Of a stretch of 64,000 nucleotides of DNA, positions 1,596 to 52,824 are shown in pieces. The stretch comes from Paracoccaceae bacterium (GTDB lineage Bacteria; Pseudomonadota; Alphaproteobacteria; Rhodobacterales; Rhodobacteraceae): positions 5,660-69,659 of the forward strand of contig JBHJGX010000017.1 of assembly GCA_050331395.1 (NCBI GenBank), given 5' to 3'. A program made the translations under genes and the position numbers. The notes beneath the pieces were generated by a model that was given only the letters and a program-made list of their open reading frames with translations, was not told the DNA's origin and did not search any database. Every line of letters begins with the position of its first letter. The first letter of the stretch is position 1.

Positions 1596-1734
1596 TGGAC
1601 ACTCCCTATCGGCGTGAAACGATTGTAACATGCGTTTCTAACAACTTTGTGACCGATGTGCGGGTTTCCACCTCGCCAAAAACCCGGTGCGCGTGTAAAA
1701 AACGGGACCGATTAATGAGTTGGTGGAGATCGCG

Positions 1735-5930: not shown

Positions 5931-6947
5931 CTAGCTCTCCAGAAGTTCGAGGATCCGACCGTGAAGGCCGGTCGGCACCACGACACCTTCGGTTTCGCTC
6001 CGCGCCCGGTTGCCAAGGCGCCGGTCTCCCGGCAAGCGCACGCCCTCTTCGCGCCCGAGTTCCGCAAATAGCGCCTCGGCCCGCGCGAGGCCCGAGGGGC
6101 CGCCGAACCGCCCGGGATCGATGGCGATCAGAATTTCACCGCCCAGTTGCGGGCCGCCGACGCTTGCCGACGCGCCGGCTTCGAGGCTCGTCACTTCATC
6201 GAGAAGCGGGCCGGCCAACAGATCGACCATGAGTGCGATCGCCGCCCCTTTGTAGCCGCCGAAGGCGCATTGTGCACCGCCCTCCAGGATGGCCTTCGGA
6301 TCGGTCGTCGGTTGGCCTTCCGCATCGATCCCGGCACCCTTGGAAACCGGACGACCGTCGCGGGCATGGATCTGAAGCTCTCCGCGAGCCATCGCGGCCG
6401 AGGCCTGGTCCCAGACCATCGCTCCGCCGCCGGGGCGCGGCCAGGCGAACGACATCGGGTTTGTGCCGAAGACCGGCCGACGACCGCCTGCCGCCGTGAC
6501 ATAAGGCGGCGAGGACGTCATCGCCAGCGCGACGAGACCCTCTGAGGCCAGGCGCTCGGTCTCCGGCCAAAGGGCAGCGAAATGCACGGTCCTTCGAAGC
6601 GAGAGCGCAGCGATCCCGGTCTCACGCGCGAGCGCGGCCAGTGGCGGCAGCACCACGGGATGCGCAACCGAAGCGAAACCGCAATCTCCTTCACCGGCGA
6701 GAACGGCGGGGGCGCTTTGGCGAACCGACGGACGTGCCCGGCCGTTGGCCACCCGGGCTTCGAGCAACGCCACATGCCCGGGCAGCCGAAAGAGCCCGTG
6801 GCTCTTTGCGCCATCTCTTTCGGCCATGGTCATATTCTCGGCGATCGCCGCGGCATTCTCCGGGTCGCAGCCCCTCGCGACCAACACGCGCTCTGCCAAT
6901 CCGCGGATCTCCCCAAGCGACAGCCGCACGCCCTCGATAATTTCCAT
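5931..6947 (-). CDS. Ldh_2 family oxidoreductase, DpkA/LhpD-like (cyclic imine reductase candidate)
   Basis: AERDGAKSHGLFRL, FGTNPMSFAWP, DQASAAMARGE and FGGYKGAAIALMVDLLAG motifs; GGAGGAG RBS. Confidence 0.85.
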   Translation of the reverse strand: MEIIEGVRLSLGEIRGLAERVLVARGCDPENAAAIAENMTMAERDGAKSHGLFRLPGHVALLEARVANGRARPSVRQSAPAVLAGEGDCGFASVAHPVVLPPLAALARETGIAALSLRRTVHFAALWPETERLASEGLVALAMTSSPPYVTAAGGRRPVFGTNPMSFAWPRPGGGAMVWDQASAAMARGELQIHARDGRPVSKGAGIDAEGQPTTDPKAILEGGAQCAFGGYKGAAIALMVDLLAGPLLDEVTSLEAGASASVGGPQLGGEILIAIDPGRFGGPSGLARAEALFAELGREEGVRLPGDRRLGNRARSETEGVVVPTGLHGRILELLES

Positions 6948-7070
6948 AGCTTTCTCCTCCTGCTCTCACGGGTTGCGGAGAGACTGAACGCCGATACGGC
7001 AAAGGAAAAGAGCGTTGACGAAGACCCAGCCTTTAGCGGCAGTCATGCGCCGCGCGCGTCGCGGATCCCA

Positions 7071-7269
7071 CCTGAGCGCAAGCGCCGGCTCGTCCGGCGC
7101 GCCCGCGCGAGGCAATCTCGTGACGCGGAGGGGCGGAGCCCCGAGGCGTCGCCGATAAGCCCGTCCGCCTTTGAAGGCGGACGGCTCAAGCGGTGCCCCG
7201 GCGGTGCCGGTGCAAGAGTTTGTCTCGCTGCGGGGGCGGGCGGGCCCGCCTCCTCGCTCGGGCCGGCGC
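7071..7269 (-). repeat. 199-bp multi-hairpin intergenic element, copy B (inverted relative to A)
   Basis: Reverse complement matches 5229-5427 at about 93.5% with no indels. Confidence 0.95.
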
Positions 7270-7362: not shown

Positions 7363-8163
7363 ATGACACTGCGTGGACAAATCGGGATCATTGGCGGCAC
7401 AGGCGCGCTCGGCAGCGCAATCGCCCTCGCGCTTTTAGAGACCGGAACCGTCCGGCCGTCCGATCTCGTGGTGGCGAACCGTTCTGGCGAGCTCGGGCCG
7501 CTCGCGGATTGGCAGGAGGTTCGGGTGACCACCTCGGCCGAGGTTCTCGTCCACGCTGCCGGGTTGGTTTTGCTCGCGGTCCCGCCCGACCAAGCGGCGG
7601 GCCTTCGGATCCACGCACCGGGCCGGCTTGTCGTCTCGGTCATGGCCGGTGTTTCGCTTGCGCGTCTTGCAGAAATCGCCGGCTCCGGGCGCGTCGTCCG
7701 CGCCATGTCGAGCCCCGCCGCGCGCCGGCGGCTCGCTTTCTCGCCGTTCATGGCCGGACCGGCTGCTTCGGCCGAGGACGTGGTTCAAGTTCGCACTCTC
7801 TTCGCGGCCTGCGGGATCGCCGAGGAAATCGAGGACGAAGCGCTGCTCGACGTCTTCACCGCGCTCACGGGGCCAGTGCCCGGTTTCGTCGCCGCCGTGG
7901 CCGCAGCCATGGCCGCTTGGGCCGAGGCCCGCGGCGCGCCGCCGGCCACCGCCGAGCGGGCCGTGAGGCAGCTCTTCCTGGCAAGCGGCAGGCTGATCGC
8001 CGAGAGCCCGAATCCGCCCTCGGCCGAGGTCGCCGCAATGATCGCCTATGGTGGCACGACTGCGGCAGGGCTCGATCGGTTGGCCGCCTCCCCCTTCGCC
8101 GAGGCGCTGGCCGATGCCCTCGACGCCGCAGCCCGCCGGGCCGGACGCATCGCCGAGGGGTGA
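7363..8163 (+). CDS. Pyrroline-5-carboxylate reductase family protein (ProC-like)
   Basis: IGIIGGTGALG Rossmann motif, VVSVMAGV, VVRAMSSP, TALTGPVPGF and YGGTTAAGL motifs. Confidence 0.85.
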   Translation: MTLRGQIGIIGGTGALGSAIALALLETGTVRPSDLVVANRSGELGPLADWQEVRVTTSAEVLVHAAGLVLLAVPPDQAAGLRIHAPGRLVVSVMAGVSLARLAEIAGSGRVVRAMSSPAARRRLAFSPFMAGPAASAEDVVQVRTLFAACGIAEEIEDEALLDVFTALTGPVPGFVAAVAAAMAAWAEARGAPPATAERAVRQLFLASGRLIAESPNPPSAEVAAMIAYGGTTAAGLDRLAASPFAEALADALDAAARRAGRIAEG

Positions 8164-8190
8164 GCCCTCGGGTGGCCGCGATCGGGGGGC

Positions 8191-8219
8191 TTGCCCGCGC
8201 GCCCGCTTCGCCCTATCGA
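8191..8219 (+). promoter_or_regulatory. Sigma70-type promoter for leuA leader
   Basis: TTGCCC-N17-TATCGA; predicted +1 coincides with the leader ATG at 8226. Confidence 0.6.
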
Positions 8220-8225
8220 ACGCCC

Positions 8226-8288
8226 ATGATCACCGCTGCACCGACCTGCCGCCCGGCGACCGCGCTCCTTCTCCTTACCGGCCCCTGA
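8226..8288 (+). CDS. leuA leader peptide MITAAPTCRPATALLLLTGP
   Basis: 20-aa uORF with four consecutive Leu codons (CTC CTT CTC CTT) 100 bp upstream of leuA; its stop lies in a strong hairpin. Confidence 0.82.
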   Translation: MITAAPTCRPATALLLLTGP

Positions 8289-8322
8289 GCGTGCCGGGTC
8301 CCGCGGCGCGCGCGCTCAGGGG
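8282..8322 (+). promoter_or_regulatory. Attenuator hairpin of leuA leader
   Basis: CCCCTGAGCG...CGCTCAGGGG 10-bp perfect stem overlapping the leader stop codon; no U-tract. Confidence 0.7.
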
Positions 8323-8388
8323 ATCCGACGACGCGCCGCCCCAACCGGGCCGTCCCGAGGGCGCCCCTTGCCGGCGAGAGAGAGACCC

Positions 8389-9960
8389 ATGACCGACACC
8401 GACACCGCTGCCCCGGCCGAGCTGCCGCGGGTCAAGATCTTCGACACGACGCTGCGCGACGGGGAGCAGTCCCCCGGCGCCTCCATGACCCTCGACGAGA
8501 AGCTGCAGATCGCCGCGCTTCTCGACGACATGGGGGTCGACATCATCGAGGCCGGGTTCCCGATCGCCTCCGAGGGCGATTTCGAGGCGGTCTCCGCAAT
8601 CGCCCGGGCGACCCGATCCGCGGTGGTGGCCGGCCTCGCCCGCGCCTCCAAGGGCGATATCGACCGGGCTTGGGCGGCGCTCGAAGGCGCCCGGCGGCCG
8701 CGCATCCATACCTTCATCGGCACCTCCCCCATTCACCGGGAGCATCAGCTCGCGATGAGCAAGGAGCAGGTGCTCGAGAAGATCGCCGAGACCGTCGCCC
8801 ATGCGCGCCGCCTTGCCGACGACGTGCAATGGTCGCCGATGGACGCGACCCGCACCGAGTTCGACTTTCTGGTCGAGAGCGTGCGGATTGCCGTCGAGGC
8901 CGGCGCCAGCACGATCAACATCCCCGATACTGTCGGCTACACGGCACCGCGCGAATCGGCCGAGTTGATCCGCCGGCTCCGCGAGGCGATCCCCGAGCTC
9001 GCCGGCTGCACGGTCTCGACCCATTGCCATAACGACCTTGGCATGGCGACGGCAAACGCGCTTGCCGCCGTCGAGGCGGGCGCCCGGCAGATCGAGTGCA
9101 CGGTGAACGGCCTCGGCGAGCGCGCGGGGAACACGGCGCTCGAAGAGGTTGTGATGGCGCTCCGGGTGCGCGCCGACATCCTTCCCTTTGCCACCGGCAT
9201 AGAGACCCGGCGATTGATGGCGGCAAGCCGGATGGTTGCCACCGCGGCGGGCTTTCCGGTGCAGTATAACAAGGCGATCGTCGGCAAGAATGCCTTTGCG
9301 CACGAATCCGGCATCCATCAAGACGGGATGCTCAAGAACGCGCAAACTTTCGAGATCATGCGCCCCGAGGATGTCGGTCTCAGCCAGACGAACCTCGTGA
9401 TGGGCAAGCATTCGGGACGCCACGCCTTCAGGACCAAGCTGTCGGAACTTGGCATCGACTTGGGCGAGAACGCGCTCAACGATGCGTTCGTGCGTTTCAA
9501 GGCGCTCGCCGACAGCAAAAAAGAGGTTTACGACGACGACCTCTTGGCGATTGTCGAGCAAGCGGCGGCGGAGGCAGGCTCGGAGCGGGTCAAGCTCAAA
9601 TTCCTGCGGGCGATCTCCGGGACCGAGGCGCCGAAATCCGCCGATGTGACGCTCGAGATCGACGGCCGGGAGCTCCGGGCAACGGCCCATGGCGACGGGC
9701 CCGTCGATGCGGCCTTTGCGGCGATCTCGGCCCTCGTTGCCCATGAGGCGGTGCTGGAACTCTATCAAATCAAGGCAGTGACGGAGGGCACCGACGCCCA
9801 GGCCCATGTGCAGGTGCGCCTCCGTGAGCATGGCCGCTTCGCGTCCGCCCAGGCCTCGGACACCGATACGGTGGTGGCGTCGGCCCGGGCCTATGTGCAG
9901 TGCCTGAACAAGCTGATCCTGCGGCGCGAGAAGTCGGCGGCGATCACCGCGACGGGATAG
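8389..9960 (+). CDS. leuA: 2-isopropylmalate synthase
   Basis: IFDTTLRDGEQSPG, HCHNDLGMA, GERAGNTALEE and HESGIHQDG motifs plus regulatory C-terminal domain. Confidence 0.97.
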   Translation: MTDTDTAAPAELPRVKIFDTTLRDGEQSPGASMTLDEKLQIAALLDDMGVDIIEAGFPIASEGDFEAVSAIARATRSAVVAGLARASKGDIDRAWAALEGARRPRIHTFIGTSPIHREHQLAMSKEQVLEKIAETVAHARRLADDVQWSPMDATRTEFDFLVESVRIAVEAGASTINIPDTVGYTAPRESAELIRRLREAIPELAGCTVSTHCHNDLGMATANALAAVEAGARQIECTVNGLGERAGNTALEEVVMALRVRADILPFATGIETRRLMAASRMVATAAGFPVQYNKAIVGKNAFAHESGIHQDGMLKNAQTFEIMRPEDVGLSQTNLVMGKHSGRHAFRTKLSELGIDLGENALNDAFVRFKALADSKKEVYDDDLLAIVEQAAAEAGSERVKLKFLRAISGTEAPKSADVTLEIDGRELRATAHGDGPVDAAFAAISALVAHEAVLELYQIKAVTEGTDAQAHVQVRLREHGRFASAQASDTDTVVASARAYVQCLNKLILRREKSAAITATG

Positions 9961-10945
9961 GTTGCTCCTGCGGGGCGCCGAGACGGGGCCCCGCCCCCTG
10001 CCCTGGCCAATTGAGCATGGCCCGGATCGGTCGGGAGACGATGAGCGGCGTCACGAAGATGCCGACCGTCGCCGCGGCCAGGAAAAGCTCGGCATCGGGC
10101 CGGTCCACGAGGCAGCCGGCCGACGCAGCCCACACCAGCGTGACGTTCCGGTTGCCGCTCAGAAGCCCCAAGGTCAAGGCCCGCGCCCGGCCTTCCTCGA
10201 AGAAGAGCGCCGCCCCCAGCGCCTGAAAGCCGAGATTGAGCGTAAAGGCGAGCAGGATCACGCCGGCAACCGTCGCGGGGGCCGCGAGGATCCGCATCGC
10301 CATGCCGTCCATGGCGCCGATCGCGACGATCACGAGGCCGAAGACCGCGATCCCGGTCATCGCCTGAGGGTTCCGCGCCACGCTTTGCCCGGCATAGCGA
10401 CGAAGCAGCTCCGCCACCGCGGCCGCGCCGCCGACGATCACCGCAAGCTTGAGCGCCATGCCGGTCGGGTCGATCGACAGCGCGTCGCCGGTCAGGGCCT
10501 CGGCAAGTGGCGGGAGATAGACGGGCGAGAGCGCGGTCGGCACCACGATCGCCAGAAGCGCCAGCGCCGGGTTGAGGCCGAAGATCGCGGCGACGGCAGC
10601 GACGCTGCCCGCGGGCGGGGCGAGAGCGGCGAGGATCATGCCGTGTTCGATCCCCTCGGGCAGTTCGGCGAGCGTGACGATGCCGAGGGTGACGAGCGGG
10701 ACGCCGAGGCTCGCCCAAAGGAGAAGGCGCACGAGATTTGGCGCGGCGGCGATCTCGGCGCGGAGCATCGCGCCGTCGGCTTTGAGGAACGCGCCGAGCA
10801 TGAAGACGAACACGGCGATGCCCATGACCGGCTTGGCCGCTGCGGCCACGGCCGGACAGAGGATGCCGGCCAGCGCTCCGGCGGCGAGCACGCACACGCC
10901 GTTCCGGCCGCAGAAGTCGAGAAACCCGAAGAAAATCCTGCGCAT
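9944..10945 (-). CDS. Bile acid:sodium symporter (BASS)-like transporter
   Basis: About ten hydrophobic segments; LAPPAGSVAA and GLLSGNRNVTL motifs. Confidence 0.72.
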   Translation of the reverse strand: MRRIFFGFLDFCGRNGVCVLAAGALAGILCPAVAAAAKPVMGIAVFVFMLGAFLKADGAMLRAEIAAAPNLVRLLLWASLGVPLVTLGIVTLAELPEGIEHGMILAALAPPAGSVAAVAAIFGLNPALALLAIVVPTALSPVYLPPLAEALTGDALSIDPTGMALKLAVIVGGAAAVAELLRRYAGQSVARNPQAMTGIAVFGLVIVAIGAMDGMAMRILAAPATVAGVILLAFTLNLGFQALGAALFFEEGRARALTLGLLSGNRNVTLVWAASAGCLVDRPDAELFLAAATVGIFVTPLIVSRPIRAMLNWPGQGAGPRLGAPQEQPIPSR

Positions 10946-23329: not shown

Positions 23330-24115
23330 ATGTCGATCGCAGGAAAGATCGCCGTGATCACCGGCTCGAATTCGGGCATCGGGCTCGGCGTTGCCGAGGA
23401 ACTCGCGAAACGCGGCGCAAAGATCGCCCTCAACTCGTTCAGCGATCGCGCCGAGGACCATGCCATCGCCGAGCGCATGGCCAGCGAGACCGGCGCCGAA
23501 GTCAAATACGTCCAGGCCGACATGTCGAAGCCCGAACAGTGCCGCGCGCTGGTGGCCAAGACCGTGGAACTTTTCGGCGGGATCGACATTCTGGTGAACA
23601 ATGCGGGCATTCAGCACGTCGCCAAGATCGAGGAATTTCCGGCCGAGAAATGGGACGCGATACTCGCGATCAATCTGTCCTCGGCCTTCCACACCACGGC
23701 GGCAGCGCTGCCGGAGATGCGCAAACGCGGCTGGGGTCGGGTAGTCAATATCGCGTCTGCGCACGGGCTGACGGCCTCGCCGTTCAAATCGGCCTATGTC
23801 GCCGCAAAACACGGGATCGTCGGGCTCTCAAAAGTGGTCGCGCTCGAGACCGCCGAGGAAGAGATAACCTGCAACGCTGTGTGCCCAGGCTATGTGCTTA
23901 CGCCACTGGTGGAGGAGCAGATCCCCGACACCATGGCGCAGTACAATATGAGCCGGGACGACGTGATCCGGAATGTCCTTTTGGAGCGCCAACCGTCCAA
24001 GGCCTTCGCGACCACCGCACAATTGGGGGGGACGGTGGCGTTTCTCTGCTCCGACGATGCCGCGCAAATCACCGGAACGACGATATCGGTGGATGGTGGC
24101 TGGACCGCGATCTGA
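23330..24115 (+). CDS. bdhA: D-3-hydroxybutyrate dehydrogenase
   Basis: TGSNSGIG, NNAGIQHV, ASPFKSAYVAAKHG, CPGYVLTPLV and LLERQPSK motifs. Confidence 0.93.
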   Translation: MSIAGKIAVITGSNSGIGLGVAEELAKRGAKIALNSFSDRAEDHAIAERMASETGAEVKYVQADMSKPEQCRALVAKTVELFGGIDILVNNAGIQHVAKIEEFPAEKWDAILAINLSSAFHTTAAALPEMRKRGWGRVVNIASAHGLTASPFKSAYVAAKHGIVGLSKVVALETAEEEITCNAVCPGYVLTPLVEEQIPDTMAQYNMSRDDVIRNVLLERQPSKAFATTAQLGGTVAFLCSDDAAQITGTTISVDGGWTAI

Positions 24116-24143
24116 AAACTGGCCTGGCCCAATGGCCGCCGGA

Positions 24144-24187
24144 GCCGCTCGGGTCGCCCGCATCAAGATGCGGTCGACCTGAGCGGC
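24144..24187. repeat. Long palindrome between convergent genes
   Basis: GCCGCTCGGGTCGCCCGCATC-AA-GATGCGGTCGACCTGAGCGGC, 21-bp arms with one mismatch and one G-T pair. Confidence 0.8.
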
Positions 24188-24248
24188 GCGCACTCAAGCG
24201 TCGGATTTTGGTGCAGCAGTCGCATCTTGGCCGAGCGCAGGCGGGGCC

Positions 24249-24740
24249 TCAGGCCTTCCAGAAAACGAAAATCGCCCAGAGGGCTGCAAGCCCGACCGCC
24301 CCCCAGAGGGGCGAACCTAAAATCCCGAGCCATGCCAGCAGGATATAGGCCGACCCTAGGAGCGAGATGAAGAGCCGGTCGCCCCGGGTCGTGTCCAAGC
24401 CCAGAAGGCCACGCCTCGGATTGCCGCCCGGCGAGACGATCTCGCGCCCGGTCATCAAGGCGAGGCACATGAGCACGAACAGGAAAAACGCGCCCGTCTC
24501 CGGCGTCCAGGCCATCCATGCGAGCGGCACGAGTTCGGGTCCGGTCGCCGGGGAGGCCGTCGCTGCGGCGCCCCAGCCGCCGGTGGCTGCCGCCGGTGCG
24601 GGCTCTTCGAGCAGCCCCCGCGCGATCAGCCAAGCCTCGACCGGCGCGCGCCACGGCTCGGGCGCAATGCACCAAGCCACCCCTGCCCCCGCGCCGAGGG
24701 CGACCAGATAGGCAAGCAGCGCGCCCAGAACCTTTCGCAT
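24249..24740 (-). CDS. DUF2160 small membrane protein (GlpU-like) with N-terminal extension
   Basis: AWMAWT and TTRGDRLFISLLGSAYILLAWLG motifs; last gene of the ABC operon. Confidence 0.85.
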   Translation of the reverse strand: MRKVLGALLAYLVALGAGAGVAWCIAPEPWRAPVEAWLIARGLLEEPAPAAATGGWGAAATASPATGPELVPLAWMAWTPETGAFFLFVLMCLALMTGREIVSPGGNPRRGLLGLDTTRGDRLFISLLGSAYILLAWLGILGSPLWGAVGLAALWAIFVFWKA

Positions 24741-24750
24741 CTTTGCCCCT

Positions 24751-25551
24751 TCACACCCGGCCGAGGGCGAAGCCCTTGGCGATGTAGTTGCGCACGAAAT
24801 AGATCACGAAAGCTCCCGGGATGATCGTTAGAACGCCGGCTGCCGCCAGAAGCCCGAGTTCGTAGCCCGCCGTCGAGGCCGTGCGGGTCATGGTGGCGGC
24901 GATCGGTTTGGCCTCGACCGAAGTGAGCGTCTTGGCGAGCAACAATTCGACCCAGGAGAACATGAAACAGAAGAACGCTGCGACGCCGACGCCCGACCGG
25001 ATCGTCGGCAGGAAGATCCGAAAGAAAAAGCGCGGAAACGAATACCCGTCGATATAGGCGGTCTCGTCGAGTTCGCGGGGGACGCCGCGCATGAAGCCTT
25101 CGAGGATCCAGACTGCGAGCGGAATATTAAAGAGGCAATGAGCAAGCGCGACGGCCACATGCGTGTCGAAGAGCCCGACCGCCGAGTAAAGCTGAAAGAA
25201 CGGCAGGGCGAAGACCGCGGGTGGCGCCATTCGATTGGTCAAGAGCCAAAAGAAGAGATGCTTGTCGCCAAGGAACCGATAACGCGAGAACGCATAGGCC
25301 GCCGGCAGCGCCACGCCCACGGACACCACTGTATTGATCGACACATAGATCAACGAGTTGATGTATCCCCAGTACCAGGTGGGGTCGCTAAAGATGACCG
25401 CATAATTCTCGAGGGTGAATTGCTGTGGGAATGGCGTGAACCCGCCGAGGATCTCGTTCGTGGTCTTGAAGGACATGGCGACGAGCCAGTAGATTGGCAC
25501 CATCAGAAACATGATATAAATGGTCAGCACAAGCCAGGCGACATACCTCAT
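24751..25551 (-). CDS. Carbohydrate ABC permease (GlpQ-like)
   Basis: LDETAYIDGYS EAA loop; FFWLLTNRMAPPAVF. Confidence 0.92.
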   Translation of the reverse strand: MRYVAWLVLTIYIMFLMVPIYWLVAMSFKTTNEILGGFTPFPQQFTLENYAVIFSDPTWYWGYINSLIYVSINTVVSVGVALPAAYAFSRYRFLGDKHLFFWLLTNRMAPPAVFALPFFQLYSAVGLFDTHVAVALAHCLFNIPLAVWILEGFMRGVPRELDETAYIDGYSFPRFFFRIFLPTIRSGVGVAAFFCFMFSWVELLLAKTLTSVEAKPIAATMTRTASTAGYELGLLAAAGVLTIIPGAFVIYFVRNYIAKGFALGRV

Positions 25552-26414
25552 GCGCGGTCACCCCGGGTCATCAGCGTATAGAATAGCCAGGAGACCAGAA
25601 GCGTCATCAAGAAGTAGATGAGACTCATCGCGGCTGCGGGCCCGAGGTCGAATTGTCCGAGGGCGATCTTGACCAGATCGATCGACAGGAAGGTCGTCGA
25701 ATTCCCCGGTCCGCCGCCGGTCAGCACCGAGACTTCGGTATAGATCATAAAGCTGTCCATGAAGCGCAGCAGGACCGCGATGGTCAGCACCTGGCTCATC
25801 TTCGGCAGTTCGATATGGCGGAAGATCGCGAGCCGGCTCGCCCCGTCGATGCGCGCGGCCTGATAATAGGCGTCCGGGATCGCCACCAGCCCCGCATAGG
25901 CCAAAAGCACCACCAGCGAGGTCCAGTGCCAGACATCCATCGCGACGATGGTCGCCCACGCGTCCCAGGGGTCTTGCGTAAAGTTGTAATCGATCCCCGC
26001 CCCGTTCAGCGTCGCACCCAAAAGCCCGATATCAGGCAGCGCGAGGATATTCCACATGGCCCCGACCACGTTCCACGGGATGAGGAGCGGCAGCGCCATC
26101 AGGACGAGACAGACGGGCACGAACGGCCCCGAGCGCGGCATGCAGAGCGCGATCGCCACCCCGAGGGGGATTTCGATGAGCAGGATGATCCCGGTAAAGA
26201 GCAGTTGCCGGCCGAGGGCCGCGTGAAAGCGCTCAGAATTCAGGATCTGCTCGTACCATTGCACGCCCGACCAGAGAAAGACGTTGTTCCCGAATGTCTC
26301 CTGCACCGAGTAATTGACGACGGTCATCAGCGGCACGAGCGCGTTGAAGGCCACAAGGATGAGCACCGGCAGGACCATCCACCAGGCGGCATTGTTCTGA
26401 ATACGGGCCGACAT
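25548..26414 (-). CDS. Carbohydrate ABC permease (GlpP-like)
   Basis: YYQAARIDGAS EAA loop; LLRFMDSF; VLTGGGPG. Confidence 0.92.
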   Translation of the reverse strand: MSARIQNNAAWWMVLPVLILVAFNALVPLMTVVNYSVQETFGNNVFLWSGVQWYEQILNSERFHAALGRQLLFTGIILLIEIPLGVAIALCMPRSGPFVPVCLVLMALPLLIPWNVVGAMWNILALPDIGLLGATLNGAGIDYNFTQDPWDAWATIVAMDVWHWTSLVVLLAYAGLVAIPDAYYQAARIDGASRLAIFRHIELPKMSQVLTIAVLLRFMDSFMIYTEVSVLTGGGPGNSTTFLSIDLVKIALGQFDLGPAAAMSLIYFLMTLLVSWLFYTLMTRGDRA

Positions 26415-27511
26415 CAGGCCTCCTCCCCGGCCAAGCGGCCATCGGCATAGAGATAGGTGCGCGCCGGGTCGAGGCGGACGCGCGGCTCGGCCGGGATCTC
26501 GGCATGTTCGGGCGCGAGAAGCGCGATCGGATGGCCGGCGAGGCGGAGCGTGACCACCCGAAAGCGCCCGGCATCGGCGATTTTGACGAGGGCGGCCGGA
26601 TGTCCCTCGGGATCGAGGCGGACGAATTCCGGACGCACGCCGATCTCGAGCCGGGCATTGCCAGCGCCGGGGCGCGCGTTCGCGGTCTCGACGGGGACGG
26701 CCTCGGCGCCGTCGGCGGGCGCAATCAAGGTGCGCCCGGTGGCGATCGACGCGGGCAGTAAATTCATCCCCGGCGAGCCGATGAAATGCCCGACAAAGGT
26801 GTGCATCGGCCGCTCGAAAAGCTCGATGGGCGTGCCGGTCTGGACGACTTCGCCGGCCGACATGACAACGACGCGGTCGGCGAAGGTGAGCGCCTCGGTC
26901 TGGTCATGGGTCACATAGATCATCGTCGCGCCAACTTTCTGGTGCAACTCCTTGAGCTTGGACCGGAGCTGCCATTTCAGATGCGGATCGATTACCGTGA
27001 GCGGCTCGTCGAAGAGGATCGCGGCGACGTCTTCGCGCACGAGGCCGCGGCCGAGGGAAATCTTCTGCTTCTCGTCGGCCGAGAGCCCGGCCGCGCGCGT
27101 GTCGAGCATCGGCGCGAGTTCGAGCATCTCGGCGATCTCGGCGACCCGGGCGGCGATCTTCGCCGCCGGCACCCGGCGGTTGCGGAGCGGGAAGGCCAGG
27201 TTCTCCGCCACGGTCATGGTGTCGTAGATCACCGGGAACTGGAAGACCTGGGCGATGTTCCGCCGGTCGGGGCCGCGGCGGGTGACATCGTCGCCGTCGA
27301 AGCGGATCCGCCCCTCAGTCGGGCGCAAGAGCCCCGAAATCAGGTTCAGGAGCGTGGTCTTTCCGCATCCCGACGGCCCGAGGAGCGCATAGGCGCCACC
27401 GTCCTGCCATTCGAGATCGAGCGATTGAAGCGCCCAATCGCCGGGGGCCCCGGTGCGCCGCGCGCGCGGCACATAGGAGTGGCGGAGGCCGTCAAGCGTG
27501 ATCGTGGCCAT
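26414..27511 (-). CDS. ABC transporter ATP-binding protein (GlpT-like)
   Basis: GPSGCGKTT, LFDEPL and YVTHDQ motifs. Confidence 0.93.
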   Translation of the reverse strand: MATITLDGLRHSYVPRARRTGAPGDWALQSLDLEWQDGGAYALLGPSGCGKTTLLNLISGLLRPTEGRIRFDGDDVTRRGPDRRNIAQVFQFPVIYDTMTVAENLAFPLRNRRVPAAKIAARVAEIAEMLELAPMLDTRAAGLSADEKQKISLGRGLVREDVAAILFDEPLTVIDPHLKWQLRSKLKELHQKVGATMIYVTHDQTEALTFADRVVVMSAGEVVQTGTPIELFERPMHTFVGHFIGSPGMNLLPASIATGRTLIAPADGAEAVPVETANARPGAGNARLEIGVRPEFVRLDPEGHPAALVKIADAGRFRVVTLRLAGHPIALLAPEHAEIPAEPRVRLDPARTYLYADGRLAGEEA

Positions 27512-28584
27512 CAGGCGCCCACCCGTCGGCCGTCAGCGTCGAAATAGAGGCATGCGCTGGGCTCGAGCCAGAAGGTCGCCGTCTCGCCGACTTCGGCCGG
27601 GTGGATGCCGTGGCTGAGGCTGACCCAGGTGGTGTCGGCCACCTCGAAATGCGCGACAGTCTCCGAGCCCGAGAGCTCGGTCACGAGAACCCGGCCGGTG
27701 ACAGCGACGGTGCCCTCGCGGGCGACCGGATGGACCGCATGGGGCCGAATGCCCACCGTGTAGGCCCCATCGGCGAGGCTCGAAATCCTGTCGGGCGCGG
27801 TCCATGTCACCGCCGCCCCGCCGGTCGGCAACCGGATCTCGCCGCCCCGTTTCTCGACCCCAGCCGCGTTCATCGGCGGCTCGGAGAAGACCCGCGCCGT
27901 CGTCAGATCGCGGGGATCGCGGTAAAGCGCACTCGTCGGGCCGAACCCGGTCACCCGCCCCTCGTGAAGCGTCGCCGTATGCCCGCCGAGCAACAGCGCC
28001 TCGGTCGGTTCGGTCGTCGCATAGACCACCACCGCGCCGCGGTCCGCGAAGAGACGCGGCAATTCCTCGCGCAGCTCTTCCCGCAGCTTGAAATCGAGGT
28101 TTGCGAGCGGCTCGTCGAGTAGGACGAGATCCGCGTCCTTGACGAGCGCGCGGGCGAGCGCCGTGCGCTGCTGCTGCCCGCCTGAGAGCTCGGACGGCCG
28201 GCGCTCGAGCATCGGGGTCAACCGCAAGAGCTCGGCGGTCTCGCGCACGCGTGCATCGAGGGCCGCGCGCGCCATGCCCGCCACGCGCAGCGGCGACGCG
28301 ATATTCTCATAGACCGACATCGACGGGTAATTGATGAATTGTTGGTGGACCATCGCGACCCGCCGGCGGCGCACGGAGACCCCGGTCACGTCACGCCCGT
28401 CGAAGCGCACGCGGCCTCCGGTCGGCCGCTCGAGCCCGGCCATCAGATGCATCAGCGTCGTCTTGCCCGCCCGGGTCACGCCGAGCAGGCAATTGAAGCC
28501 CCCGCGCTCGATCGTGAGATCGGTGGGGTGGATATGCGTCTCCGCCCCCACCTGCAGGCTCACTTGGCTGAGCTCGAGCGTCAT
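27511..28584 (-). CDS. ABC transporter ATP-binding protein (GlpS-like)
   Basis: GVTRAGKTT Walker A, LSGGQQQR signature and LLDEPLANLD. Confidence 0.93.
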   Translation of the reverse strand: MTLELSQVSLQVGAETHIHPTDLTIERGGFNCLLGVTRAGKTTLMHLMAGLERPTGGRVRFDGRDVTGVSVRRRRVAMVHQQFINYPSMSVYENIASPLRVAGMARAALDARVRETAELLRLTPMLERRPSELSGGQQQRTALARALVKDADLVLLDEPLANLDFKLREELREELPRLFADRGAVVVYATTEPTEALLLGGHTATLHEGRVTGFGPTSALYRDPRDLTTARVFSEPPMNAAGVEKRGGEIRLPTGGAAVTWTAPDRISSLADGAYTVGIRPHAVHPVAREGTVAVTGRVLVTELSGSETVAHFEVADTTWVSLSHGIHPAEVGETATFWLEPSACLYFDADGRRVGA

Positions 28585-28618
28585 CGTCTCCCTTCGACGG
28601 GGGCGCCTGCCCCGTCCC

Positions 28619-29179
28619 TCAGCGCGCCCGGACTTTGAACCAAAAGTCGAAAGCGCCCGAATTGTTGGCGTAGGCGTCCCGTTTGCCGCCGTCGTTCACG
28701 AGCACCTGGATCGGGTAGCCCGTGCGGAAGGTCATCAGGTTCGGCCGGTTGCGGTCCGTCGAGTTGATCGAATACGCGATCTTGGTGTCGGGCTGCCAGA
28801 CGACGATGGCATAGCGCGGCACGTCCGGGAACAGATACCCCTGCCCCGCCCGTTGGCCGGTGCCCTGCGGCGACTGGACGTTCGTATTGCCCGAAGACCA
28901 GCGAATATCGTCCACATAGACGACCATCTCCGCCGCCTGCACCGCCTGGCCGCCCCGAAGCACGAGCCTCGAATAGGCGTTCACCGCGGCGTTGTTGATC
29001 TTGTACCACGCGTCGGCGTTCTCGACCCCGCCCTCGGGGACTGCGGCGACGGTGGACTCAGGCAGGTCGAACCCGCCGGCAAGCTCGTTCACATTGACTT
29101 GCCCGGCAGCAGGAAGCGCGAGGCCGACGACAAGCGCAACCGCGGCGGCCGGACGGAGGAGAGCGGCAGAGATGGACAT
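28619..29179 (-). CDS. Secreted protein with probable LecA/PA-IL-like lectin domain
   Basis: Signal peptide ending AAG; SPQG, GQGYLFPD, AIVV and LVND..AYANNSGAF align with LecA GPQG, DQGLICHD, ALVM and IYND..TYGNNSGSF (LecA sequence from memory). Confidence 0.62.
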   Translation of the reverse strand: MSISAALLRPAAAVALVVGLALPAAGQVNVNELAGGFDLPESTVAAVPEGGVENADAWYKINNAAVNAYSRLVLRGGQAVQAAEMVVYVDDIRWSSGNTNVQSPQGTGQRAGQGYLFPDVPRYAIVVWQPDTKIAYSINSTDRNRPNLMTFRTGYPIQVLVNDGGKRDAYANNSGAFDFWFKVRAR

Positions 29180-29285
29180 GTGTAACCTTTCATGAGCGAA
29201 CAGCGCCGAGGATGCGATGGCAAGAACACAGCCAGTATGGCACAGCCAGCCGGTCTTCGGGGACGGTTTCGCTCGGCGGTCGGGA

Positions 29286-29307
29286 GGCGGGGCAGGCGCG
29301 CCCCGCC
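29286..29307 (-). other. GC-rich hairpin after the substrate-binding gene
   Basis: GGCGGGGC-N6-GCCCCGCC, typical position for an mRNA-stabilising stem in ABC operons. Confidence 0.5.
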
Positions 29308-29316
29308 CGGTCGACC

Positions 29317-31053
29317 TCAGTTCGCGTCCTGCCAGCGCTTGATCAGGTCCTCATAAGCGACCGTCTCGCCCTGCGGCTTCTCGTTGTCGAGTTTGGGCTT
29401 TGGCGAGCCGGGCTGCGAGAGCCAGTACTCCGCCTCGCGGGGCTCGTTGAGGCGCGGACCGCACCCGTTGTAGACGCCGGCCTGCTCGTCCGCCGCCTGC
29501 ATCCGCGCCATCACCGTGTCCATTTCCTGTGCGAGCCGGTCCATCGCTTCCTGCGGCGTAAACGCGCCCGAATTCACGTCGCCGATCTGCTGCCACCAGA
29601 TCTGGGCGAGCTTGGGGTAGTCGGGCACATTGATGCCGGTCGGGGACCACAGCACCCGGTCCGGCGAGCGATAGAACTCGACCAGACCGCCGAGCTTGGG
29701 CGCGCGTTCGGTAAAGCTCTCGTGCCGAACGGTACTGTCACGGATGAAGGTCAGACCCACATGGCTCTTGCGGACATCGACGGTTTTCGACGTCACGAAT
29801 TGCGCATAGAGCCAAGCCGCTTTACGCCGCTCGACGGGGGTCGACGTGAACAGTGTCCATGAACCCGCATCCTGATAGCCGAGCTTCTGGCCTTCTTCCC
29901 AGTAGGGGCCGTGGGGCGACGGCGCCATCCGCCAGAGCGGGTTGCCCTCCGCATCCACAGTGTTGTTGCCGTCGGACTGGGGCGCGACCATCGACTGGGT
30001 AAAGGCCGTATACCAAAAGATCTGCTGCGCCACGTTGCCCTGCGAGAGCGCCGGCAAGGACTGGTAGAAGTCATAGTTCGCGGCCGCGGGCGGCGCGTAT
30101 TTCCGAAGCCACTCGTCCCATTTGCGGATCGCGTAAACCGCCGCCGGCCCGTTCGCCGCGCCGCCGCGCGTCACCGACGCGCCGACCGGGTTACAGCTGC
30201 CCTCGGGCATCCGGATGCCCCACTCGTCCACCGGCACGCCGTTCGGCCGCCCGGTCGAGCCTGCGCCCGCCATCGAGAGCCAGGCATCGGTCATTCGCCA
30301 GCCGAGATCGGGCGCACGCTTGCCGTAATCCATATGGCCGTAGATCCGTACGCCGTCGATCTCGCGCACATGTTCCGAGAAAAACTCGGCGATATCCTCA
30401 TAAGCCGACCAGTTGACCGGCACGCCGAGATCGTAACCATAGATCTCGCGGAACTGCTCCTGAAAGTCCTCTCGGTCGAACCAGTCTTTGCGGAACCAGT
30501 AGAGATTGGCGAATTGCTGGTCGGGCAACTGATAGAGTTTCCCATCGGGCCCGGTGGTGAAGGAAATTCCCATGAAATCGTCGAGGTCGAGACCCGGGTT
30601 GGTAACCTCCGCGCCCTCGCCTGCCATCCAGTCGGTCAGGTTCTGCGCAAGCCCGAGCCGCGCATGGGTACCGATCAGGTCGCTGTCGTTCACATAGGCG
30701 TCGTAGAGGTTCCGGCCGGTCTGAAGCTGGGTTTGGACAGCCTGCACCACCTCGCCCTCGCCGAGCAGCTGGTGGTTCACCCGGATGCCGGTGATCTCCT
30801 CGAACGCCCGGGTCAGGGTCTCGGCCTCGTAGCTGTGCGTCGGGATCGTTTCGGAGAGGACGTTGATCTCCATCCCGGCGAACGGCTCAGCGGCCTCGAT
30901 GAACCACTCCATCTCCGCGAGCTGCTCCTCGCGGCTGAGCGCGGAGGGCTGAAATTCGTCGTCGATCCAACGCTCTGCCGCGCCGATATCCGCAGCGGCC
31001 GGCGCGGCCAGAACGAGCGCGAGCGCAGACGCGACCCAAAGGCTTCTGATCAT
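29317..31053 (-). CDS. Glycerol ABC transporter substrate-binding protein (GlpV-like)
   Basis: Signal peptide; SETIPTHSYE, QLPDQQFANLYWFR and YQDAGSWT motifs; divergent from glpD-glpK. Confidence 0.9.
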   Translation of the reverse strand: MIRSLWVASALALVLAAPAAADIGAAERWIDDEFQPSALSREEQLAEMEWFIEAAEPFAGMEINVLSETIPTHSYEAETLTRAFEEITGIRVNHQLLGEGEVVQAVQTQLQTGRNLYDAYVNDSDLIGTHARLGLAQNLTDWMAGEGAEVTNPGLDLDDFMGISFTTGPDGKLYQLPDQQFANLYWFRKDWFDREDFQEQFREIYGYDLGVPVNWSAYEDIAEFFSEHVREIDGVRIYGHMDYGKRAPDLGWRMTDAWLSMAGAGSTGRPNGVPVDEWGIRMPEGSCNPVGASVTRGGAANGPAAVYAIRKWDEWLRKYAPPAAANYDFYQSLPALSQGNVAQQIFWYTAFTQSMVAPQSDGNNTVDAEGNPLWRMAPSPHGPYWEEGQKLGYQDAGSWTLFTSTPVERRKAAWLYAQFVTSKTVDVRKSHVGLTFIRDSTVRHESFTERAPKLGGLVEFYRSPDRVLWSPTGINVPDYPKLAQIWWQQIGDVNSGAFTPQEAMDRLAQEMDTVMARMQAADEQAGVYNGCGPRLNEPREAEYWLSQPGSPKPKLDNEKPQGETVAYEDLIKRWQDAN

Positions 31054-31230
31054 CCGATCCTCCCTGATCTGGGCTGGCTCTCCCGACCAACCTCGGCGCA
31101 AAGACACCACCATCGGACCCGGTGGTCAACGCTTTTCACCGGCCGCAGGCGCGAGCGGCCGGCAGCCTTCGGCGGGGCCCGCGGGTGGAGGCTTCGTGGC
31201 AAGAGAAGACTGAAACTTCCGCACCTCGGA

Positions 31231-31246
31231 AAAACGCGCGCGTTTT
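31231..31246. promoter_or_regulatory. Perfect 16-bp palindrome in the glp divergent promoter region
   Basis: AAAACGCGCGCGTTTT, followed by TTCG/CGAA half-sites at about 31266-31275. Confidence 0.4.
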
Positions 31247-31337
31247 CGGGGCTCTGCCCGTCGGATTCGCCGAACACGGTTCTGATCGAGCCGGTGCAAG
31301 CGATATGGTAAGGACTGTGCGCAAAGGAGGAGCCAAT

Positions 31338-32861
31338 ATGACCAGCGAGATCTTCGACCTCGCCATCGTCGGTGGTGGCGTAAACGGCTGCGGGATCGCC
31401 CGGGATGCCGTCGGCCGCGGCCTGAGCGTCACGCTTTGCGAACAAGGCGACCTCGCACAGGCGACCTCGTCGTCCTCGACAAAATTGTTCCACGGCGGGC
31501 TCCGTTATCTCGAACACTACGAGTTCCGGTTGGTCCGCCAGAGCCTCGTCGAACGCGAAGTCCTGCTCCGAGCCATGCCGCATATATCTTGGCCCATGCG
31601 CTTCGTGCTGCCGCATCATCGGGGATTGCGCCCCGCCTGGCTGCTGCGCCTCGGTCTTTTTCTCTACGATCATCTGGGCGGACGGAAAATCCTGCCTGGA
31701 ACGCGGACCGTGGATTTGCGCAGCGATCCGGTGGGCCGGGCGCTTAAGCCGGATTTCACCAAGGCGTTCGAGTACTCGGATTGTTGGGTCGAGGACTCGA
31801 TGCTCGTTGCACTCAATGCCCGCGACGCGGCCGACCGGGGCGCCGAGATCCGCACCCGCACTCGGCTGGAGACCGCCGAGCGGCGTGACGGCCTTTGGCA
31901 TCTGACCTATCGGGATGTCGAGACCGGCGCGACCGAGGCCCGGCGAGCCCGCGGGCTCGTCAATGCGGGCGGCCCATGGGTCGAAGACGTGATCCGTGGC
32001 GCGCTTCGCCAAAATACCGCCGCACGCATTCGCCTCGTCCGCGGCAGTCATCTTGTGGTGCCGCGGCTGACCGACCATGATCGCGCCTATATTTTTCAAA
32101 ACTCCGACCAGAGGATCGTATTCGCGATCCCTTATGAAGAGGACTTCACCCTCATCGGCACGACGGATGTCGAGCATAAGGACCTGGACGACATTCGCTG
32201 TACGGACGAGGAAGCGGAGTATCTGTGCCGCGCCGCGTCCGAGTATTTCGCTGAACCGGTCACGGCCGACCGCATCGTTTGGCGCTATGCGGGGGTACGG
32301 CCGCTCTATGACGACGGACAGTCCTCTGCGTCGAAGGCCACTCGGGATTACGTTTTGACGGCCGAGGATGCGGACGGACAGGCGCCGCTTCTCAATGTCT
32401 TCGGCGGGAAAATCACGACATTTCGAAAGCTTGCCGAAGCCGCGCTCGAAAAGCTGCGGCCATGGTATCCGGCCATGGGTGGCGGATGGACCGCGCGCGC
32501 GGCGCTGCCGGGCGGCGACTTTCCCCATGACGGGGTCGCGGCGCTTGTCGCCGATTTGTCGGCCGAACACCCCTATCTTGGCGTGCGGCGGGCCCGGCGC
32601 TTGGTGCGCGCCTATGGCACCGAGGCGCGGTTGATGCTGGACGGAGCGACCTCGGAAGCCGATCTCGGTCCTGAATTCGGCGCCGGTCTGACCGCGCGGG
32701 AGGTTCGTTGGATGCGCGACCGGCTTTGGGCGCGAACGGCCGAGGATATCCTTTGGCGCCGATCGAAACTCGGCCTCCGCGTAACCGCTGAGGAAACAGC
32801 ACGGCTCCGGCGTTTCCTCGCCGAGGACGGTCCATCGAGCGCCCGAGCCGCGGCCGAGTGA
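31338..32861 (+). CDS. glpD: Aerobic glycerol-3-phosphate dehydrogenase
   Basis: DLAIVGGGVNGCGIARDAVGRG, TSSSSTKLFHGGLRYLE and GGKITTFR; AGGAGG RBS. Confidence 0.97.
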   Translation: MTSEIFDLAIVGGGVNGCGIARDAVGRGLSVTLCEQGDLAQATSSSSTKLFHGGLRYLEHYEFRLVRQSLVEREVLLRAMPHISWPMRFVLPHHRGLRPAWLLRLGLFLYDHLGGRKILPGTRTVDLRSDPVGRALKPDFTKAFEYSDCWVEDSMLVALNARDAADRGAEIRTRTRLETAERRDGLWHLTYRDVETGATEARRARGLVNAGGPWVEDVIRGALRQNTAARIRLVRGSHLVVPRLTDHDRAYIFQNSDQRIVFAIPYEEDFTLIGTTDVEHKDLDDIRCTDEEAEYLCRAASEYFAEPVTADRIVWRYAGVRPLYDDGQSSASKATRDYVLTAEDADGQAPLLNVFGGKITTFRKLAEAALEKLRPWYPAMGGGWTARAALPGGDFPHDGVAALVADLSAEHPYLGVRRARRLVRAYGTEARLMLDGATSEADLGPEFGAGLTAREVRWMRDRLWARTAEDILWRRSKLGLRVTAEETARLRRFLAEDGPSSARAAAE

Positions 32862-32939
32862 GCGCAGCCGACGCCTGGTCCCCTTGCCAACGCCCCCCGA
32901 CCGCGGTTCGATGCGAAAAAACGGTAAGGGGAGGGAGAT

Positions 32940-34445
32940 ATGACGACACCGACAGGCAGGGCGGGCCACGTGCTCGCCATCGACCAGGGGACAACCTCGA
33001 CCAGAGCCATGGTCTTCGACGGCGCCTTTCGCGTCGTCGCCGTCGCACAGCAAGAGTTTCCGCAGTATTTTCCTCAATCGGGCTGGGTCGAGCACGATCC
33101 GGAGGATCTTTGGGCGACAACGGTCGCCACCTGCCGTGCGGCACTCGAACGCGCGGGCTTGCGCGCCGGGGACGTGGCAGCCATCGGGGTCACGAACCAA
33201 CGCGAAACCACACTCGTCTGGGATCGCACCACAGGCCGCGCAATCCATCCCGCGATCGTCTGGCAGGATCGCCGCACCGCAGAACGCGCCGCGCGACTTC
33301 GCGACCAGGGCCACGAAACGCTGATCTCGCAGCGGACCGGGCTGCTCTGTGACCCGTATTTCTCCGGAACGAAAATCGGCTGGATCCTCGATCGGGTGAA
33401 CGGCGCGCGACGTCGGGCCGAGGCGGGCGAGCTCGCGTTCGGGACCGTCGACAGTTGGCTGATTTGGCGGCTCACGGCAGGAGCGGTCCATGTGACGGAC
33501 GCGACCAATGCGGCGCGCACGCTTCTCTTCGACATTCGCGCGAACCGTTGGGACCCGGAGATTTGCGCGCTTCTCGGTGTGCCGGAGGCGATGCTGCCCG
33601 AAGTGCGCGACAGCGCCGGCAGTTTCGGGACAGCGCGGGCGGATTTGTTCGGCGGCGCGATCGAGATCCGAGGGGTCGCCGGCGACCAACAGGCCGCCAC
33701 CGTTGGCCAAGCCTGTTTCCGTCCGGGGATGATCAAATCGACCTATGGCACAGGATGTTTCGCGGTGGTGAACACCGGCGACCGTCCGATCGCGTCCGAA
33801 AACCGGTTGCTCACCACCATCGCCTATCGGCTCGGCGGCCGCACGACCTATGCGCTCGAAGGCTCGATCTTCGTTGCCGGTGCCGTGGTCCAATGGCTGC
33901 GCGATGGCCTCAAGATCATCCGCGACGCGCCCGAGACCGAACCACTTGCCAAAAGCAGCGACCCCGAGGCGGCCGTCTATCTGGTGCCAGCTTTTGTCGG
34001 CCTCGGCGCGCCTTATTGGGACGCGGACTGCCGGGGCGCGAACTTCGGGCTCACACGGAATACAGGGCCAGCGGAGTTTGCGCGGGCGGCGCTCGAGAGC
34101 GTTGGTTATCAGACCCGCGATCTGCTCGAGGCGATGCACCGGGATCTGGGACCGATGGGGGAGACGGTACTCCGTGTCGATGGGGGGATGACTGCGTCGG
34201 ATTGGTCGATGCAGTTTCTCGCCGACATCCTGGGCGCGCCTGTCGACCGGCCGAACGTCCTTGAGACCACCGCGCTCGGGGCCGCATGGCTCGCCGGATC
34301 TGCGGCTGGGGTGTATCCGGATCAAGACGGTTTTGCCGCCGCATGGGCGGTAGATCGCCGATTTGAGCCGTCTATGGAGGGCGAGCTGCGGGAGCGCAAA
34401 TATCTCGGTTGGAAGGACGCGGTCGCCCGGACATTGACCCGTTAG
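32940..34445 (+). CDS. glpK: Glycerol kinase
   Basis: [40 protein letters not shown] and RVDGGM motifs. Confidence 0.98.
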
Positions 34446-34685
34446 CCTGATATGTCGTCGGCGGAGAGGCGGGACGCCAAGCATCCAGAGAAGGACGACC
34501 ACATATTCGACACCGCCCCGCCACCAGATCGCGTCCCTTCTTTCTCTCGCCCGCATAACCGTGATCTACCCCGCGAAGGTTAATCGCGGCTGAATACGGC
34601 GCATGGGGCTCGCGGACCTGCGCCTTTGTGTTAAACCACTGGGGCTTTTCGTATTCCTGCCCGCTCGATCCAAGGAGGCCCCTTC

Positions 34686-52817: not shown

Positions 52818-52824
52818 GGGGACC

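Follow-up and report, generated by a model that had tools for sequence, protein, structure and literature searches.

What is a gene for a LecA-like protein doing inside an operon for the uptake of glycerol? The question is raised by a contig from a Paracoccaceae bacterium (JBHJGX010000017.1), of which positions 5,660 to 69,659, a stretch of 64,000 nucleotides called the window here, were analysed as a whole. On its minus strand, an open reading frame (ORF) of 186 amino acids (28619..29179 including the stop codon, ATG start, TGA stop) lies between the gene of a periplasmic binding protein and the first of two ATPase genes of an ATP-binding cassette (ABC) transporter. An earlier reading of these letters without database searches, referred to below as the sequence-only reading, had described the product as a secreted LecA-like lectin, co-expressed with glycerol uptake and perhaps capturing carbohydrates such as galactosylglycerols. 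On balance, and with modest confidence, we explain the protein as an exported, single-domain, Ca2+-binding beta-sandwich of the PA-IL (LecA) superfamily, which would serve as a dispensable glycan- or glycoside-binding accessory co-induced with glycerol uptake.

Predicted fold, family and putative calcium site

The C-terminal domain of the protein (residues 56–186; 28622..29014, on the minus strand, as are all coordinates below unless stated otherwise) was modelled by AlphaFold2 with an alignment of 35 family sequences, resulting in a predicted local distance difference test score (pLDDT) of 94.9 and a predicted TM-score (pTM) of 0.89 for the domain. This alignment (A2) is an author-chosen subset of the 46 family members described below, and the conservation of the Ca2+ ligands was recomputed on all 46. 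From the single sequence, the same program gave a useless model (pLDDT 43). In the Foldseek comparison with the PDB, ranks 1 to 11 were all occupied by LecA, PllA or EclA-N (probability 1.00, TM 0.49–0.76, with the LecA chains at 0.58–0.76), all aligned over 132–141 columns, which is the whole domain. A sharp drop was seen from rank 12 onward (E ≥0.12, query-normalised TM ≤0.42), and a comparison with viral structures gave no meaningful match (best E 0.018, TM 0.27). Since the first eleven matches are all PA-IL proteins aligned over the whole domain, the predicted fold is the jelly-roll beta-sandwich of LecA, as the sequence-only reading had proposed.

For the comparison of sequences, the LecA query was matched to PDB entries 3zyb and 1l7l. 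In a single BLASTP comparison, residues 68–177 aligned with LecA 2–113 at 26% identity (E = 0.005), and in this alignment the LecA motifs listed in the sequence-only reading proved to be real and collinear. The Smith-Waterman score against LecA was 55, compared with 30.4±5.1 for shuffled sequences (z = 4.8), and one shuffle out of 2000 reached it. Because LecA was chosen after the fact, this pairwise signal is suggestive and by itself insufficient for a database-wide correction, which the profile and fold evidence survives. The protein has no Pfam match even at E ≤1 and no NCBIfam match at E ≤0.01, and phmmer against the PDB returned neither a PA-IL chain nor any other relevant match.

A HMMER scan of 1.84 billion representative proteins yielded 48 relatives at E ≤1e-3, counted as clusters at 50% identity. 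Two of them, P0011 and P0047, are long repetitive proteins matching over short stretches only and were excluded, leaving a family alignment of 46 members. The shared domain is about 130 residues long and C-terminal, with the consensus W..N..VN ... LRA..I.VYA.DV.W ... SP.G.G..AG.GW.FP ... IV..Q ... VND..G.Y.DN.GAFD. Matches to the Pfam family PA-IL (PF07828) are weak and confined to four members (best E 0.0015), and the curated threshold of PF07828 is not reached by the lectin-fold protein. When the family profile was run against 177,635 PDB sequences, the top four matches were all PA-IL lectins (E 0.025–0.19). Profile alignment by hhalign with LecA, PllA, a third PA-IL structure and EclA-N gave a probability of 91% and an E-value of 1e-6 over the C-terminal 31 columns only, so that homology over the full length rests on the predicted model and the collinear motif alignment. 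The family is a divergent, so far unannotated sister family within the PA-IL (LecA) superfamily. Matches to DUF5014 occurred in three members with a best E of 0.012 and were judged to be noise.

The architecture of the members varies. In P0020 (758 amino acids), P0034 (472 amino acids) and P0013 the lectin-like domain is a C-terminal module of Peptidase_S8 subtilases or papain-family Peptidase_C1 proteins, and in some 13 members of roughly 290–340 amino acids it follows an unannotated N-terminal stretch of some 150–200 residues. By a hydrophobicity heuristic, about 14 of the 46 have N-termini resembling a signal peptide; the others resemble the cytoplasmic LecA.

The putative Ca2+-binding motif of the window protein, V161-N-D163-x6-Y170-A-N172-N173-S-G175-A-F177 (28649..28699), was found by the PDB profile search, hhalign and column counts, and its equivalent in LecA is Y98-N-D100...Y105-G-N107-N108-S-G110-S-F112. 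In the profile-profile alignment the LecA Ca2+ ligands Asp100, Asn107 and Asn108, which the sequence-only reading had thought retained, indeed correspond to Asp163, Asn172 and Asn173, while Trp94, Pro104, Gly106, Gly175 and Phe177 match the PA-IL invariants W33, P44, G46, G110 and F112. Over the 46 members, D163 is present in 41, D or N at position 172 in 38 and N173 in 41. The triad as a whole is intact in 38 members, including all three operon-embedded proteins. The position of Asn107 is taken by Asp in 37 of the 46 ('DN'), as it is in PllA and EclA-N, which share the fold. In the crystal structure of EclA-N, Ca2+ is held by Asp114, Asp121, Asn122 and two backbone oxygens (PMC11875179), and the Ca2+ ion of LecA, which two backbone carbonyls likewise help to hold, binds two neighbouring (vicinal) hydroxyls of the ligand (PMC8048816). 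The triad (Asp, Asp or Asn, Asn) is lost in P0015, P0018, P0022, P0028 and P0043 and partly in P0032, P0036 and P0038, for instance as VNFA...RRNGNF, and in these members Ca2+-dependent binding has probably been abandoned.

The residues by which LecA contacts galactose did not fare as well. The family has replaced the whole His50–Gln53 loop by a Gly-rich loop of its own, SPxGxGxxAGxG[W/F/Y], with an aromatic residue at position 115 (Tyr115 in the window protein). Arg110 stands in the place of His50, a replacement already noticed in the sequence-only reading, and Ala111 in that of Pro51. The Gln53 equivalent claimed there does exist, as Gln113, in the window protein alone, but the family column is variable (S, G, P, E or A), and neither His50, Pro51 nor the Gln53 loop is kept in the family. 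With the Ca triad kept and the galactose loop lost, it is reasonable to expect Ca2+-dependent binding of a diol-bearing ligand, whereas the galactoside specificity proposed earlier is not supported. EclA-N likewise keeps the Ca site without the galactose residues (PMC11875179).

The window protein thus resembles LecA (PF07828; PDB 1OKO, 2VXJ, 4CP9) in its predicted jelly-roll of about 120–130 residues, its collinear motifs and its putative Ca ligands, and differs from it by the low identity (about 18–26%), the lacking Pfam PA-IL match and a 9-residue insertion after the 'AIVV' strand, which carries the near-invariant Gln129. LecA has no signal peptide, whereas a predicted one and an N-terminal linker are present here. 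LecA is a quorum-sensing-regulated virulence lectin and not a gene of an ABC operon. PllA and EclA also start directly at the lectin domain and are not operon-embedded, and EclA carries a fused second domain that binds fucose. What is known, in short, are the fold and the Ca site; new are a family beyond the reach of Pfam PA-IL, its putatively exported members and a clade inside a nutrient ABC operon.

Upstream of the domain, residues 1–26 (29102..29179) are predicted to be a Sec signal peptide by heuristics only, with probable cleavage after AAG. The N-terminus reads MSISAALLRPAAAVALVVGLALPAAG up to this site and continues with Q; it has a charged n-region (Arg9), a hydrophobic core of 12 residues with a mean Kyte-Doolittle value of 2.7 and an A-x-G cleavage-type motif. 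As there is no Cys in the N-terminus, the protein is not a lipoprotein. Equivalent N-termini are found in the two operon-embedded homologues, P0002 and P0003, and the protein is probably exported. Residues 27–55 (29015..29101) form the mature N-terminus and linker, compared in a three-sequence alignment (A3), and have a pLDDT below 50 in the single-sequence model. The motif QVNVNELAGG (QVN[VL]NEL.GG or similar) is common to the three operon-embedded proteins, with N29, N31 and G35 invariant, and is followed by a low-complexity linker rich in Ala, Pro, Glu and Gly. The length of the stretch from motif to domain varies from about 20 residues in the window protein to about 30 in P0002 and about 60 in P0003.

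The glycerol operon and the recurrence of the pairing

Along the minus strand the gene order is binding protein, lectin-fold gene, two ATPases, two permeases and DUF2160. The GlpV-type periplasmic substrate-binding protein (29317..31053, SBP_bac_1) most likely starts at 31053 (578 amino acids) rather than at 31113 (598 amino acids). Downstream of the lectin-fold gene lie a GlpS-like ATPase 1 (27511..28584; ABC_tran and TOBE_2, with a UgpC-subfamily match below cut-off), a GlpT-like ATPase 2 (26414..27511; ABC_tran and OB_MalK), permease 1 (25548..26414) and permease 2 (24751..25551), both BPD_transp_1, and a small DUF2160 membrane protein (24249..24740; PF09928 in residues 75–162). The operon is adjoined, in divergent orientation on the plus strand, by glpD for glycerol-3-phosphate dehydrogenase (31338..32861, from the gene call; NCBIfam NF008899, 762 bits against a cut-off of 360) and glpK for glycerol kinase (32940..34445; TIGR01311, 675 bits against a cut-off of 590).

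Over 93% of its length, the window binding protein shares 62.5% of its residues with its counterpart in the glp locus of R. leguminosarum, which is arranged as glpR-glpD-ATPase-ATPase-permease-permease-DUF2160-binding protein-glpK. A glycerol ABC transporter of this architecture has been characterised by experiment (Ding et al. 2012, cited in PMC7912956). The same six components with adjacent glpD and glpK occur in R. leguminosarum VF39, as GlpS-T-P-Q-(DUF2160)-V, and in Cupriavidus metallidurans, as Rmet_2229-2234 (PMC7912956), and in a Ralstonia strain the expression of a homologous cluster was strongly raised on glycerol (PMC11223650). The six-component set of the rhizobial-type operon is complete in the window, as in Ruegeria and R. 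leguminosarum. Based on the identity of the binding protein, the linkage to glpD and glpK and the six components, the name 'glycerol ABC operon' is supported by orthology, and the operon context given in the sequence-only reading was correct. By the same orthology the window operon would transport glycerol and be induced by it. It differs from the R. leguminosarum and C. metallidurans operons in that the binding-protein gene comes first instead of last, which is also the case in Ruegeria, in the extra lectin-fold gene behind it and in the N-terminal extension of the DUF2160 protein.

The 186-codon reading frame of the lectin-fold gene, with a predicted signal peptide and its own ribosome-binding site, GAAAGG (29186..29191, 6 nt before the ATG, read from the sequence), was confirmed where it had been placed, 137 nt behind the stop codon of the binding-protein gene and 34 nt ahead of the ATG of ATPase 1 (28584). 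Its third-position G+C content (GC3) is 0.84, against 0.79–0.87 in the flanking operon genes, and its second-position value (GC2) of 0.47 matches the neighbouring operon genes.

The pairing recurs. Homologue P0002, 45% identical to the window protein, comes from a metagenome-assembled genome of an uncultured Limibaculum in a microbial-mat metagenome, and P0003, 35% identical, from a Joint Genome Institute (JGI) metagenome; both genes occupy the identical slot between a gene for a binding protein of about 580 amino acids and the first ATPase gene. The window DNA itself originates from a stromatolite metagenome, so that at least two of the three lineages come from a stromatolite or microbial mat. 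The sequence-only reading had named three findings that would count against it; two of these, a different fold and the absence of homologues from glp loci, were looked for, and the opposite was found for both. Between the loci the transporter proteins are 73–89% identical and the lectin-fold proteins 35–45%; the gene has therefore kept its slot at a rate of evolution several times that of its neighbours. Over the same comparison the window binding protein is 81–89% identical to the lectin-linked orthologues and about 82–83% to the lectin-less orthologue of Ruegeria conchae, where an operon on a plasmid likewise begins with the binding-protein gene and is ordered in the same way, with no lectin gene and a gap of 84 nt between binding protein and ATPase. 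As the similarity of the binding protein is equal with or without the lectin, the transported substrate is probably unchanged.

The pairing of a LecA-fold protein with a glycerol operon is nevertheless rare. A tblastn search of 72,556 plasmid records with the lectin-fold protein gave no match, and none of the 484 plasmid records with a similar binding-protein gene holds a lectin relative. Among 5.8 billion protein clusters the operon-embedded clade consisted of P0001–P0003, with no further member. A word-indexed homologue search recovered a 99% identical copy only and, with the three-sequence alignment, the three known proteins only, while species-representative genomes and JGI metagenomes added only the known Limibaculum locus, one Alcaligenaceae locus and one non-glp locus. 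The literature searches found no description of a PA-IL-type lectin inside a nutrient ABC operon.

A contig from the same stromatolite study (Logan contig L002) was considered as a second genomic context; it is a mosaic and was not counted as independent evidence. In a comparison with window positions 27200–31400, the breakpoint is at 29599: on its downstream side, with the lectin and ATPase genes, the contig agrees with the window at 100%, and on the upstream side identity falls to about 78%. There the contig carries a different allele of the binding protein (86% amino acid identity, dS 1.15) and a DeoR/GlpR regulator replacing glpD and glpK. Logan contigs break at 29575–29602 and the depth doubles at 29544–29677, which points to either a strain mixture with a branch in the assembly graph or a recombination joint.

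The next-closest relatives after the glp-embedded clade, P0004 and P0007, are on mobile-element-like DNA and not linked to glp genes. P0004 (loci L012–L014) lies beside genes for Replic_Relax, TrwB-like, ParE, RepB, ParB and resolvase proteins, and P0007 (L009) beside a phage-type integrase and an RHS/YD-repeat protein of 2850 amino acids. A further family member, from Thermostichus/Synechococcus, is located near rbcLXS, and other distant relatives either stand alone or are the protease modules mentioned above, likewise without linkage to glp genes.

Directly after the stop codon of the binding-protein gene, a GC-rich stem-loop was found (29278..29316, −29 kcal/mol, z = −2.0). It lacks a U-tract and so is no classical terminator. 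The binding-protein gene is followed by a similar hairpin in the Limibaculum operon (L004), in locus L008 and in the lectin-less Ruegeria operon, hence in four out of four loci including the window; this is a generic operon feature, of a kind that may favour the binding-protein mRNA over the distal genes. The distance from the lectin stop codon to the ATPase start is 18–34 nt in all three loci, and no promoter-like site was found in window positions 24000–31600. With the lectin-fold gene between the hairpin and the ATPase gene and no such site in this region, transcripts of the ATPase and permease genes must cross it, and co-transcription with the transporter is the likely consequence. A candidate hairpin between the lectin and ATPase genes was no better than shuffled sequence (z = −0.8).

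Proposed role of the lectin-fold protein

In the preferred explanation, any transcription of the transporter genes would also yield the protein. On the model of LecA, PllA and EclA-N, Asp163, Asn172 and Asn173 together with backbone carbonyls would hold one Ca2+ ion, which in turn would coordinate two neighbouring hydroxyls of a sugar or polyol. The specificity may be set by the Gly-rich loop ending in Tyr115, with galactose not required. In mat-dwelling Rhodobacterales, such an accessory could bind glycans or glycosides, either within the periplasm or on the outside of the cell, and it would be co-induced with glycerol uptake without being a stoichiometric part of the transport machinery. The fast divergence, the absence from most orthologous operons and the equal similarity of the binding protein to lectin-linked and lectin-less orthologues argue for such a dispensable, environment-facing accessory and not for a subunit or a substrate-changing device; the fast evolution relative to the transporter, in particular, is a poor fit to a tightly coupled subunit. 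By analogy, the occurrence of relatives as binding modules on secreted proteases fits a glycan-binding role.

Several points weigh against this explanation. A Sec signal peptide delivers a protein to the periplasm only, and no route to the surface is evident. Only three lineages are known, so the statistics of co-occurrence are thin, and it is only in the last 30 or so residues that the resemblance of the sequence to PA-IL has firm statistical support. With the galactose loop of LecA not conserved, any lectin activity is extrapolated from the Ca site, and the ligand of EclA-N, which has the same site, is still not known (PMC11875179). The hairpin after the binding-protein gene could attenuate the downstream genes, and no RNA-seq run holding the locus was found.

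It is unlikely that the protein captures substrate for the transporter, that is, that a periplasmic lectin binds glyceryl glycosides such as floridoside, galactosylglycerol or glucosylglycerol and supplies the ABC importer with these or with the glycerol set free from them. The communities of origin are phototrophic mats, in which glyceryl glycosides are common compatible solutes, and three lineages have retained the slot through a divergence of the protein to 35–45% identity. The Ca site, moreover, would suit cis or vicinal diols (PMC8048816). However, the binding protein is as similar to the lectin-less orthologue (82%) as to the lectin-linked ones (81–89%), the galactose-specific residues of LecA are not conserved in the family, and the lectin-fold protein has diverged at several times the rate of the transporter that it would supply. 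There is also no glycosidase in the operon, and no glycoside hydrolase among the window genes scanned, in agreement with the earlier remark that the window holds no galactosidase. Capture of galactosylglycerols for the transporter, as suggested in the sequence-only reading, is possible and gained no positive support, with nothing suggesting a change of substrate.

A tie to glycerol may also be absent altogether. The gene would then have been inserted from a mobile pool behind the hairpin, as a passenger or with an unrelated Ca2+-dependent or structural role, an alternative that we consider doubtful. It would account for the family members on mobile elements (P0004 with relaxase, TrwB and ParE; P0007 with an integrase and an RHS toxin gene), for the extreme rarity of the clade, with P0001–P0003 only among 5.8 billion clusters, and for the other unannotated ORFs inserted in the Limibaculum operon. 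A passenger would, however, hardly show a GC3 fully matched to the host genes, a slot retained through divergence to 35% identity and three copies that all preserve the Ca triad and the residues defining the fold; these features argue for long-term selection in the context of the operon.

The least probable alternative is a polyol buffer, in which the Ca2+ site is a high-capacity, low-affinity store for glycerol itself, held by its vicinal diol and concentrated in this way near the high-affinity binding protein: the LecA Ca2+ does coordinate any suitably spaced pair of hydroxyls, including catechols, and virtual-screening poses place glycerol side chains on it (PMC8048816), and the protein is predicted to be exported and co-encoded with a glycerol importer, but binding of bare diols at lectin Ca sites is typically millimolar, which is of marginal physiological value, the majority of glycerol ABC operons do without such a protein, and fast divergence is unexpected for a binder of an invariant small molecule. 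The two-tier form of this idea, with the lectin-fold protein as a second, low-affinity tier that takes up glycerol or glyceryl head groups through Ca2+–diol contacts and passes them to GlpV, is equally improbable; if true, transport that depends on a binding protein would gain an accessory component of a new type.

More broadly, the locus would link the sensing or uptake of phototroph-derived carbon, in the form of glycerol, to a carbohydrate-binding function in heterotrophs of mats and stromatolites. If glycans of a partner are bound, attachment would be switched on by a nutrient which that partner releases; if glycerol or glyceryl glycosides are bound, the protein would represent a new accessory class for ABC importers. 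Either way, lectin research gains a new scaffold around a Ca2+ site whose specificity loop differs. It is the first case found of a PA-IL-type lectin fold kept inside a nutrient-uptake operon, and it belongs to a divergent LecA/PA-IL branch of about 48 clusters among 1.8 billion representative proteins, unannotated in the sources queried, with putatively exported and protease-fused forms.

Other features of the operon and the window

In the Limibaculum operon (L004), unannotated ORFs of 90 amino acids (6473-6745) and 157 amino acids (6767-7240) are located between permease 2 and DUF2160. After DUF2160, another of 212 amino acids (7876-8514) has a lipoprotein-like N-terminus ending in Cys. It seems that the glycerol operon collects accessory exported proteins in mat bacteria.

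The DUF2160 protein is 163 amino acids long in the window and 159 in L004 (7392-7871), while the orthologues in Ruegeria, Rhizobium and L008 have 89–93. The N-terminal extension of about 70 amino acids in the window and L004 consists of an extra hydrophobic helix and a GGWGAAA stretch.

An ORF of 1168 amino acids antisense to glpD and glpK (31050-34556, minus strand) is an artefact of DNA with 68% GC and not a gene. Coding-like codon bias without a Pfam match at E ≤1e-5 was seen in three window ORFs, of 759 amino acids (52606-54885, plus strand), 333 amino acids (9944-10945, minus strand) and 242 amino acids (903-1631, minus strand). The window contains no tRNA gene and no Rfam match. The remainder is chromosomal housekeeping DNA with mreB, mreC, a PBP2-type transpeptidase gene, leuA, ileS, panC, lutABC-like genes and genes for a TRAP binding protein and a Na/Ca exchanger.

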